Shown in pieces: positions 19,367-19,656 of a stretch of DNA of 22,962 bases. Origin of the DNA: a virus. Lineage: Duplodnaviria; Heunggongvirae; Uroviricota; Caudoviricetes. The notes under the pieces are model-generated. The model worked only from the letters and a program-made list of their open reading frames with translations. It made no database searches and was not told the origin of the DNA. The stretch lies in the IMG/VR virus record IMGVR_UViG_2645727945_000010. The stretch is one strand, 5' to 3'. Position numbers and translations under genes: made by a program. Within the stretch, counting starts at the first letter, position 1. Each line of letters opens with the position of its first letter.

Positions 19367-19440
19367 AGCCTCCTCCCGGGTCCATAACGCACTCAGCCGG
19401 GTATGGTTCAGCCCATTTTTCCCGGCGTCTCATGCCGCAA

Positions 19441-19566
19441 ATGTTAACTGCTGCCTGGTTAACATTTGCTGAAAAAGCCAGTTAACATTTTTTTCGCACA
19501 ACAAACTGAATAATAAAGATAAAAACCGCAAAAATGCCCGGGCAGCCAGTTAACATGTTAACTGGC
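19441..19566. repeat. Array of five GTTAAC-containing half-sites, including a perfect 20-bp palindrome CCAGTTAACATGTTAACTGG (19546..19565)
   Basis: GTTAAC at 19443-19448, 19458-19463, 19481-19486, 19549-19554 and 19557-19562. The 11-mer CCAGTTAACAT occurs at 19478-19488 and 19546-19556 with inverted copies. Lies in the AT-rich HNH-terS intergenic region. Confidence 0.6.
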
Positions 19567-19656
19567 CTGAAACAGGAATTTTTTCTCTGCATGAGACGGG
19601 GGGCGGTGTCCGGAGCGATCGTTTTTCACGCCGGATGATACCCCCCCCCGCTCGGG

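Follow-up and report, generated by a model that had tools for sequence, protein, structure and literature searches.

The closest described relative of the cos region treated here belongs to the Stx1 phage Lys8385Vzw, which was induced by Zhang et al. (2021) and for which PhageTerm, a computational mapping of the ends reported in a single paper, gave cos packaging, 3' cohesive ends and a genome end with the sequence CGCCCCCCCT (PMC7946995). In the passages searched, that paper gives the terminus and is silent on repeats, G-run and TerS sites. In phage HK97, the HNH protein gp74 assists the large terminase TerL (PMC9410871), while an A-tract at +15 to +29, just downstream of the cut toward terS, is the site recognised by the small terminase TerS (PMC11331095). 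For the small terminase of PaP3 a model has been put forward in which two adjacent helix-turn-helix domains (HTHs) read the ends of a cos site of ~20 bp (PMC7672466). Satellites (PICIs) are known to keep cosN and to change cosB, and the helpers of those E. coli PICIs that encode a TerS of their own had not been found in 2018 (PMC6092414).

The window, i.e. the whole stretch of 22,962 bp that was analysed, corresponds to the late region of an E. coli prophage that is lambdoid and of the Stx1a/Stx2c-converting type. Its main genes are given below, and HK97-like connector and tail genes are also present on the minus strand.

21918-22451, minus strand: lysozyme
20457-20924, minus strand: Rz
20064-20264, plus strand: RHH-like DUF3950 gene
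19657-20022, minus strand: HNH endonuclease, 121 aa, immediately upstream of cos (Pfam HNH PF01844, 29.6 bits, cutoff 21.4)
18803-19366, minus strand: terS, 187 aa, GTG start, Shine-Dalgarno sequence GGAGGAGG (Pfam Terminase_2)
17145-18806, minus strand: terL, 553 aa, HK97-class large terminase (Pfam TerL_ATPase and TerL_nuclease)
15144-17081, minus strand: prohead protease-capsid fusion (Peptidase_S78 and Phage_capsid)
13568-14932, minus strand: portal

Several HK97-type traits can be recognised in this arrangement: an HNH gene beside the terminase genes, a TerL of the HK97/Terminase_1 class and an HK97-fold capsid module with prohead protease and portal. TerL matched PF03354 and PF20441 and is 23% identical to HK97 gp2 over 490 aa (E=8e-12). 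HNH and terS bound a gap of 290 bp (19367-19656), which a preliminary description of this DNA had called AT-rich; this is true of the middle of the gap, with 40% G+C at 19450-19600, but not of its flanks, with 52-66%. A total of 94 records match the gap and, among the matches listed, it is 94-98% identical in records of Stx phages including BP-4795, 2851 and 1717, and the eight records listed in a search of complete E. coli genomes bear no annotation in the region under the match.

The record of Lys8385Vzw (MT225100) ends with ...GACACCGCCCCCCCT and restarts with CTCACGCAGAGAAAAAATTCC (in longer context, the end reads ...GGACACCGCCCCCCCT and the start CTCACGCAGAGAAAAAATTCCCGTTTCAGGGCAGTTAACATGTTAACTGGC...), and the aligned stretch on the gene strand of the window reads ...GGACACCGCCCCCCGT CTCATGCAGAGAAAAAATTCCTGTTTCAGGCCAGTTAACATGTTAACTGGC. 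When the two are compared, the 10-nt 3' overhang CGCCCCCCCT of the phage aligns with positions 19596-19605 of the window, which read CGCCCCCCGT on the gene strand. TerL and HNH (the latter a 'putative DNase' in Lys8385Vzw) are both 99% identical between phage and window, and for TerS the identity is 92%, with no difference in the first 80 residues. Since the mapped ends of a phage with near-identical TerL, HNH and TerS align onto 19596-19605, the G6 tract would be the cut site, with CGCCCCCCGT as the predicted cohesive end of the window prophage. The elements of the gap, with positions of sites counted from the first base after the overhang, are the following.

19641-19649, minus strand: G-run, G9 on the gene strand (C9 on the plus strand), upstream cos element found in 110 of 110 cores
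19606-19640, minus strand: 35-nt core spacer with GATC (19617-19620) and a conserved GGACAC, from the alignment
19596-19605, minus strand: cosN, predicted 10-nt 3' cohesive end CGCCCCCCGT containing G6, from homology to the mapped ends of Lys8385Vzw
19575-19595, minus strand: flank to the right of the cut, reading CTCATGCAGAGAAAAAATTCC and including an A-tract (+12 to +17); CTCA..C..AGAAAA is invariant in nine diverged loci including satellites
19545-19566, no strand: proximal candidate TerS site pair, palindrome GCCAGTTAACATGTTAACTGGC, with GTTAAC centres at +36.5 and +44.5, from motif and position
19489-19544, minus strand: AT-rich spacer of fixed length with T-tracts ~9-10 bp apart; the length is conserved and the sequence differs
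19478-19488, plus strand: site 3, CCAGTTAACAT, centre +112.5
19455-19465, plus strand: site 4, CTGGTTAACAT (ATGTTAACCAGGCAGCAG on the gene strand), centre +135.5
19441-19451, minus strand: site 5, reading GCAGTTAACAT on the gene strand, centre +150.5, in opposite orientation to site 4

The homology supports the gap 19367-19656 as the cos site of a lambdoid Stx-type prophage. A cos site between the HNH gene and terS was what the preliminary description had proposed, and both the end and the start of the Lys8385Vzw record fall exactly on the homologue of the G6 tract; this tract, correctly placed at 19598-19603 and listed there as a feature of the edge, would lie within the cut site itself. More distant record ends were uninformative, the Pseudomonas phage BR161c being a partial genome that begins inside terS and the record of Stenotrophomonas phage Silvanus beginning ~20 nt upstream of the homologous C-run. 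It is extremely unlikely, in our judgement, that the region is not a packaging site at all, either in a defective prophage or in one with a headful (pac) start elsewhere. Of 5,426 complete E. coli genomes 1,244 contain the gap, in 2,948 copies altogether and as many as 7 in one genome, which suggests that some copies are cryptic, and related PPompW prophages carry an IS in the G-run and have no HNH. However, the window has intact HNH, terS and terL genes with 92-99% identity to their counterparts in an inducible phage whose cos ends were mapped, and the TerL falls in the HK97 3'-cos class.

To describe the conserved parts of the gap an alignment was made of nine diverged loci, comprising E. 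coli phages (TerS 65-80% identical), Enterobacter/Serratia prophages (TerS 47%) and two satellite-like elements. This revealed an invariant skeleton of a G-run, ~31 nt and the sequence (G/T)ACACCGC.C.CC..CTCA..C..AGAAAA. Scanning IMG/VR with the core pattern brought the total to 130 loci with 110 distinct versions, all 110 of which contain a G-run of 5-13 (mode 7-8) at a fixed spacing of 30-31 nt from ACACCGC (29-31 nt in 109 of them). A GATC is situated in the spacer, at most 30 nt upstream of the core, in 92 of the 110. At the position of the overhang 55 have the 10-mer CGCGCCCCCT, 24 the CGCCCCCCGT of the window and 18 CGCCCCCCCT. In every phage-type locus whose sequence extends far enough, HNH lies upstream of the core, and the core, which extends over ~75 bp in the window (19575-19649), persists in satellites without HNH or terL; the G-run is likewise present in satellites lacking HNH. 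The preliminary description had also pointed out the C9 tract at 19641-19649, with the right coordinates. The run is found in every one of the distinct cores at a fixed spacing and has a counterpart in HK97, so the tract, 35 nt upstream of the overhang, belongs to the conserved elements of cos and is not an incidental homopolymer. By analogy the G-run could be the positional counterpart of lambda cosQ, and its role may be that of a termination signal or of a contact for the nuclease or HNH. A search of a phage collection with the short-gap cos core gave, beyond the Stx group, only Salmonella phage FSL SP-016, where the match lies away from the record end.

The part of the gap between this core and terS is dominated by a repeat. 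The window contains five copies of GTTAACAT, and all five lie within 19441-19562; 0.35 copies are expected in the window, and none of 100 shuffles reached five. The five GTTAAC (starts 19443, 19458, 19481, 19549 and 19557), all extending to the 8-mer GTTAACAT, had been noted before as half-sites together with a perfect 20-bp palindrome and an inverted pair separated by N9, and all of these were found. The palindrome CCAGTTAACATGTTAACTGG (19546-19565) forms part of a longer one, perfect over 22 bp (GCCAGTTAACATGTTAACTGGC, 19545-19566), and the pair ATGTTAAC-N9-GTTAACAT at 19441-19465 has perfect arms that extend to 12 nt (19437-19448 and 19458-19469). In the literature searched the palindrome GTTAACATGTTAAC was not found.

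When analysing the relatives with a long gap, the dyad was found at the same position in all of them, and the positions of the five sites are the same, within one base, in the window and in loci L003, L005, L007 and L092, with one extra GTTAAC site each in L005 and L007. In these five loci sites 2 and 3 are 68 bp apart from centre to centre despite the diverged sequence of the spacer, and in L007 the dyad shows symmetrical changes in its two flanks, GCCA...TGGC becoming GGTG...CACC. A count of invariant bases over 42 distinct long-gap sequences gave 37 of 38 among core bases and 39 of 113 among the others between +25 and +175 (Fisher p=1e-12, a statistic that overstates independence because the compared sequences are phylogenetically related). 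The spacings of 8, 68, 23 and 15 bp show no simple helical phasing. A weak match to the IHF consensus with one mismatch (19499-19511) is poorly kept in L005 and L007, and matches of this kind barely exceed the shuffled background, with 28 found against 19 expected and 28 reached by 2 of 100 shuffles. A search against Rfam found no RNA family and no terminator was called. GTTAAC is the recognition sequence of HpaI, and an explanation related to restriction was dropped because it leaves the AT extension, the fixed positions and the co-variation with TerS unaccounted for.

The origin of the array can be traced in relatives with a short gap. In ~45 such loci the dyad comes after the Shine-Dalgarno sequence and overlaps the terS ATG, its central ATG being the start codon itself (M-L-T-A/G-Q-K-R-K), and the palindrome of the window is positionally homologous to this start. 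Site 4 together with its downstream bases is identical at 15 of 20 positions to the short-gap terS 5' end ATGTTAACAGGGCAGAAGCG, and in L092 at 17 of 20, while the current terS start GTGCTGACA is, as judged from its bases, a degenerate copy. Given that the dyad is the terS start in short-gap loci and that site 4 resembles it, the array probably arose by duplication of the dyad and the terS-start region and has since been maintained in the form of non-coding binding sites, ~190 bp upstream of the relocated start.

The ATGTTAAC units resemble duplicated terS 5' ends, so part of their similarity is historical, and it could be argued that all the GTTAACAT copies are non-functional fossils of serial duplications of this end (ATG-TTA-ACx encoding Met-Leu-Thr), with only the core and the A-tract flank serving packaging. 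Apart from the likeness to short-gap terS starts at the dyad and site 4, such a view could draw on HK97, whose TerS needs just a 15-bp A-tract site at +15 to +29 (PMC11331095). We nevertheless regard it as unlikely. The near-complete invariance of the core bases, while 65% of the neighbouring bases vary, and the base-exact positions across a TerS divergence of 65-80% speak against fossils, and the non-coding upstream half of the dyad is conserved too. Locus L062, whose terS start has lost the motif, still has two GTTAAC upstream, and L092, without any terS, keeps five sites. An ORF of 24 codons from the ATG of the palindrome, which has no Shine-Dalgarno sequence and was rejected, is not conserved, stopping after only 4 codons in L005.

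To address which protein might read the repeats, the small terminase was studied in more detail. Pfam reported Terminase_2 (PF03592) as the sole family, with 36 bits (cutoff 26.1) and for residues 2-57 only; the Nu1-type family was not among the Pfam matches of this TerS. The protein consists of an N-terminal SF6-type helix-turn-helix (residues 1-56), a disordered linker and C-terminal helices. In the AlphaFold model the N-terminal four-helix domain has a pLDDT of 92-96 (residues 1-50) and residues 60-105 are below 50, while the helices at 115-145 are moderately confident and the oligomerisation region, which in small terminases of the SF6/SPP1 type is a central domain forming a ring of 9-10 subunits, has low confidence. 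The best structural match with Foldseek was 4zc3, the DNA-binding domain of SF6 TerS (TM 0.84, rmsd 1.6 Å, 30% identity), ranking at the top together with 2cmp (TM 0.81-0.84), and PaP3 6w7t and the NV1 TerS were also matched. BLASTP against HK97 gp1 gave E=1.1, i.e. no homology. The HK97-like framing that had been proposed for the region has to be abandoned for this protein, which is of the SF6/SPP1 helix-turn-helix type and unrelated to HK97 gp1. A pattern scan of genome contigs with the TerS protein gave 37 matches, none of them confirmed, and relatives were instead obtained from homologue look-ups and from the cos-core DNA pattern.

Comparison of these relatives revealed that the type of repeat follows the DNA-binding domain of TerS. 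Every locus with a TerS containing ...ARVKGSQL... or a close variant has GTTAAC sites; the long-gap loci number 75 and have 5-6 sites each, the ~45 short-gap loci have a single dyad, GT(A/T)AAC-AT-GTTAAC, over the terS ATG, and L062 has its two GTTAAC upstream of the start codon. Six satellite loci of two lineages have ...ARVKGWQL... together with other changes in the HTH, and these carry the same cutting core and no GTTAAC array but AGTTACAC repeats (GTTACAC), the first at +32, matching the position of the first phage site. No HNH was found upstream in these six loci, with at least 1,750 nt available in all of them, and no terL was found downstream, where the sequence extends past terS in L008 and L009 only; an AlpA or primase-like gene is located nearby. 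The C-terminal half of TerS in L008 is almost identical to that of phage L007, and such a phage-like C-terminus is, on this sequence evidence, what a satellite TerS would need to engage the TerL of a helper. The satellite L092, in contrast to those with a terS, has an integrase, Ash, a D5-type primase, SSB and a capsid-E-like gene and no terS, HNH or terL; the core and five GTTAAC, positioned as in the phages, are still present at the element's end. That a satellite without terS copies the repeats of its helper and one with terS has its own is the pattern expected if the repeats are an address for TerS.

As judged by these comparisons the repeats are under constraint and co-vary with the DNA-binding domain of TerS, and the GTTAACAT array most likely docks the small terminase. 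The preliminary description had named the array as a candidate for TerS-binding sites, and with its fixed positions, its almost invariant core and a repeat type that tracks the TerS HTH this is the best-supported reading. As an alternative it had put forward binding by the adjacent RHH-like protein. In that case the array would be an operator for DUF3950, or for another regulator of phage or host, controlling terS or the late genes. Palindromic and inverted sites are indeed typical of operators, DUF3950 accompanies the long array in 57 of 60 loci, and there is a weak σ70-like match over sites 3 and 4; it is the sole promoter-like match in the gap, on the strand opposite the genes, and such matches are no better than chance. 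The co-occurrence may be explained by shared ancestry in one E. coli phage group, and the DUF3950 gene lies ~400 bp off, beyond HNH, with no GTTAACAT near its start. Furthermore, the array is present without DUF3950 in three long-gap loci, among them L005, and in L092, and the dyad is present without it in 32 of 32 short-gap loci, while the repeat type follows the TerS HTH and not the neighbouring genes. An operator of this kind therefore seems quite unlikely.

Binding by TerS could also serve mainly autoregulation, the dyad acting as a roadblock or occluding the start, with packaging specificity coming from the core alone. This is possible in the ~45 short-gap relatives, where the dyad covers the start codon, but in the window the dyad is situated 190 bp upstream of the terS start and no promoter was called on the gene strand. 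The array also persists in the satellite lacking terS, and satellites with their own TerS need a private packaging address, which the swap of repeats supplies. For the array of the window we find autoregulation as the main function very unlikely, and packaging remains the preferred role of TerS binding.

We consider it probable that the gap is the cos site of a Stx-type prophage with an HK97-class TerL and HNH, built from a cutting core (19575-19649) and a TerS-bound specificity module (19441-19566) resembling lambda cosB. Late in infection, the N-terminal HTH domains of an oligomeric TerS would bind the five GTTAACAT elements, with adjacent HTHs occupying the 22-bp dyad, centred at a distance of ~40 bp from the cut, and other subunits taking the three distal sites. 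The T-tract/AT-rich spacer of fixed length is probably bent and would bend or wrap the DNA, and a contribution of IHF, to which the consensus match lends weak support, may be possible. The terminase would thereby be anchored on viral DNA, with TerL and HNH held over the core ~35-45 bp away; these would nick the core 10 nt apart to leave 3' overhangs, and packaging would then proceed toward terS, terL and the head genes. In this scheme we infer TerS binding, DNA bending, the respective parts of TerL and HNH in nicking and the function of the G-run. The conserved A-tract flank, and not the repeats, could be the primary contact of TerS, in analogy to HK97.

A wider proposal, which we make tentatively, is that the cos site is a two-part address. 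A shared core (G-run, 35 nt, C-rich 10-mer and A-tract) would be read by TerL and HNH, and an exchangeable 'postcode' by TerS, with the orthogonal repeats GTTAACAT and AGTTACAC read by KGSQL and KGWQL TerS, respectively. Two classes of E. coli satellites may exploit this against Stx-type phages, one with the postcode of the helper and no terS (L092) and one with its own TerS, a phage-compatible C-terminus and a private postcode (L008 and L009). The G-run, which HK97 shares, would then be an element general to cos sites of the HK97 type that has so far gone unstudied.

The terminus itself is already published for the near-identical phage Lys8385Vzw (PMC7946995), while the repeat array, the G-run as a conserved element and the satellite swaps were not found described in the literature searched. 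The cos region is found in phages carrying stx1 and stx2c, and a defined cut site gives correct genome ends for phages of the Stx type. A candidate TerS code may help to predict which terminase packages which prophages and satellites, and the locus offers a compact system for an SF6-type TerS on an HK97-type, HNH-assisted cos, a combination unstudied so far. If true, the two-part address could reveal which phages help the TerS-encoding E. coli PICIs, whose helpers have long been missing, and could offer a means of influencing how Stx phages spread. Most of the interest of the site lies in the natural swaps of TerS and repeats and in its wide distribution in pathogenic E. coli.

Among known systems Lys8385Vzw (MT225100; PMC7946995) is the same as the window, with the same core and the same five GTTAAC sites; it differs in one base of the overhang (G for C at position 9) and in having G7 where the window has G9. 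L092 is paralleled by the cos-type SaPI SaPIbov5 (helpers phi12 and phiSLT; PMC5052747; Quiles-Puchalt 2014), a satellite without terminase that carries the cos of its helper and is packaged by the TerS, TerL and HNH of the latter, although the host is Gram-positive and the sequences are unrelated, and a second class of satellites with private TerS and private repeats on the same core was not described in that work. The small terminases of SF6, SPP1 (G1P) and PaP3 share the N-terminal HTH fold with the TerS of the window, and the ~20-bp site of PaP3 fits the 22-bp dyad; SF6 and SPP1 are headful (pac) packagers whereas Lys8385Vzw, the relative of the window, has fixed cos ends.

The comparison with cos regions of HK97-like phages, which the preliminary description had suggested, shows the same core layout in HK97. 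HK97 (gp74 HNH, gp2 TerL and gp1 TerS; Kala 2014; PMC9410871; PMC11331095) has the same order of HNH gene, cos, terS and terL and an overhang that is likewise 10 nt, 3' and C-rich and starts with CGCC. Its right end consists of G8, 32 nt and CGCCGCCAAA, the G-run of the window also lying ~32-35 nt upstream of the overhang, and the T-tract just inside the left end of HK97 gives both an A/T-tract downstream of the cut. HK97 has no repeat array but a single 15-bp site, read as DNA leaves the TerS tunnel, the distance from cut to terS is 49 bp compared with 229 bp in the window, and its TerS is unrelated in sequence to that of the window with its external SF6-type HTH. Lambda cos resembles the window in its modular order of an upstream element (cosQ), a nick site (cosN) and repeats of mixed orientation just before terS (in lambda the TerS-binding R3/R2/R1 of cosB), with a spacer that is bent in lambda (IHF site I1) and probably bent in the window. 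It differs in its 12-nt 5' overhangs, in the lack of an HNH, in gpNu1 being of another family, in the unrelated sequence of the R sites and in its IHF site, to which the window has only the weak match with one mismatch. The cos of the window is thus not of the lambda family, since TerS family and overhang differ, nor a full homologue of that of HK97, the TerS being unrelated. As far as can be read from its sequence, it combines a logic like that of lambda cosB with an HK97-type, HNH-assisted core giving 3' overhangs, read by a TerS of the SF6 type.

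The DUF3950 gene is located between Rz and HNH, oriented against the late operon, and is found in 57 of 60 long-gap relatives (full array of GTTAAC sites upstream of terS) and in none of 32 short-gap relatives (single dyad overlapping the terS ATG). Among the head genes, the portal gene comes after the capsid gene and not after terL.

20064-20264, plus strand: DUF3950 protein (66 aa), ribbon-helix-helix-like sequence
13568-18806, minus strand: head genes in the order terL, prohead-protease/major-capsid fusion (645 aa), portal

Around the array and the cut core two small elements were identified, together with an ORF starting at the central ATG of the palindrome.

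19421-19435 and 19589-19603: 15-nt inverted repeat, 87% complementary, flanking the array on both sides
19617-19620: GATC (Dam) site between G-run and cut
19485-19556, minus strand: 24-codon ORF, MLTGCPGIFAVFIFIIQFVVRKKC

The sequence CCCCCCGTCTCATGC, the right flank of the cut, reappears inverted as GCATGAGACGCCGGG just beyond site 5, and the 15-nt repeat, weaker in the phage relatives L003 and L005, may be a trace of an array-building duplication. The GATC is retained in 92 of 110 distinct cos cores. The ATG is the positional homologue of the terS start in short-gap relatives; the ORF itself was rejected as a gene since it has no Shine-Dalgarno sequence and is unconserved, the copy in L005 ending after 4 codons.

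In the PPompW prophages the G-run of cos is split by an insertion sequence (GGGGGG / IS / GGGGG), and the stretch from the Q/tRNA region to cos lacks the lysis and HNH genes in these prophages, an arrangement that could stem from IS targeting of the homopolymer or from IS-mediated deletion.

L138 (LC567822.1) 1046-2504: ISEc20 (IS110-family) in the cos G-run, equivalent to about 19644 in the window

The cos core was also found in satellites, of which one, L092, encodes an integrase, Ash, a D5-type primase, SSB and a capsid-E-like gene, with no terS, HNH or terL in 1-11730. It ends with a phage-type cos core and five GTTAAC sites positioned as in the phage, and adjoins an autotransporter gene, as does L008.

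L092 1-11730: satellite, cos core at 10737-10765
L008 1706-2474, L009 1862-2489, also L027, L044, L064 and L090: satellite-like elements with their own TerS

HNH is absent from all six TerS-encoding elements (upstream sequence of at least 1,750 nt in each) and terL was undetected in the sequence past terS, available in L008 and L009 only; an AlpA or AAA_25 primase-like gene lies near these loci. Their G-run and cut core are those of the phage, with AGTTACAC repeats in place of GTTAACAT, and their TerS is only 43–48% identical and has an altered helix-turn-helix (KGWQL), the C-terminal halves of L008 TerS and TerS of phage L007 being nearly identical. Helpers were not identified for the TerS-encoding E. 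coli PICIs of PMC6092414, and the L008/L009-type elements may be these PICIs.
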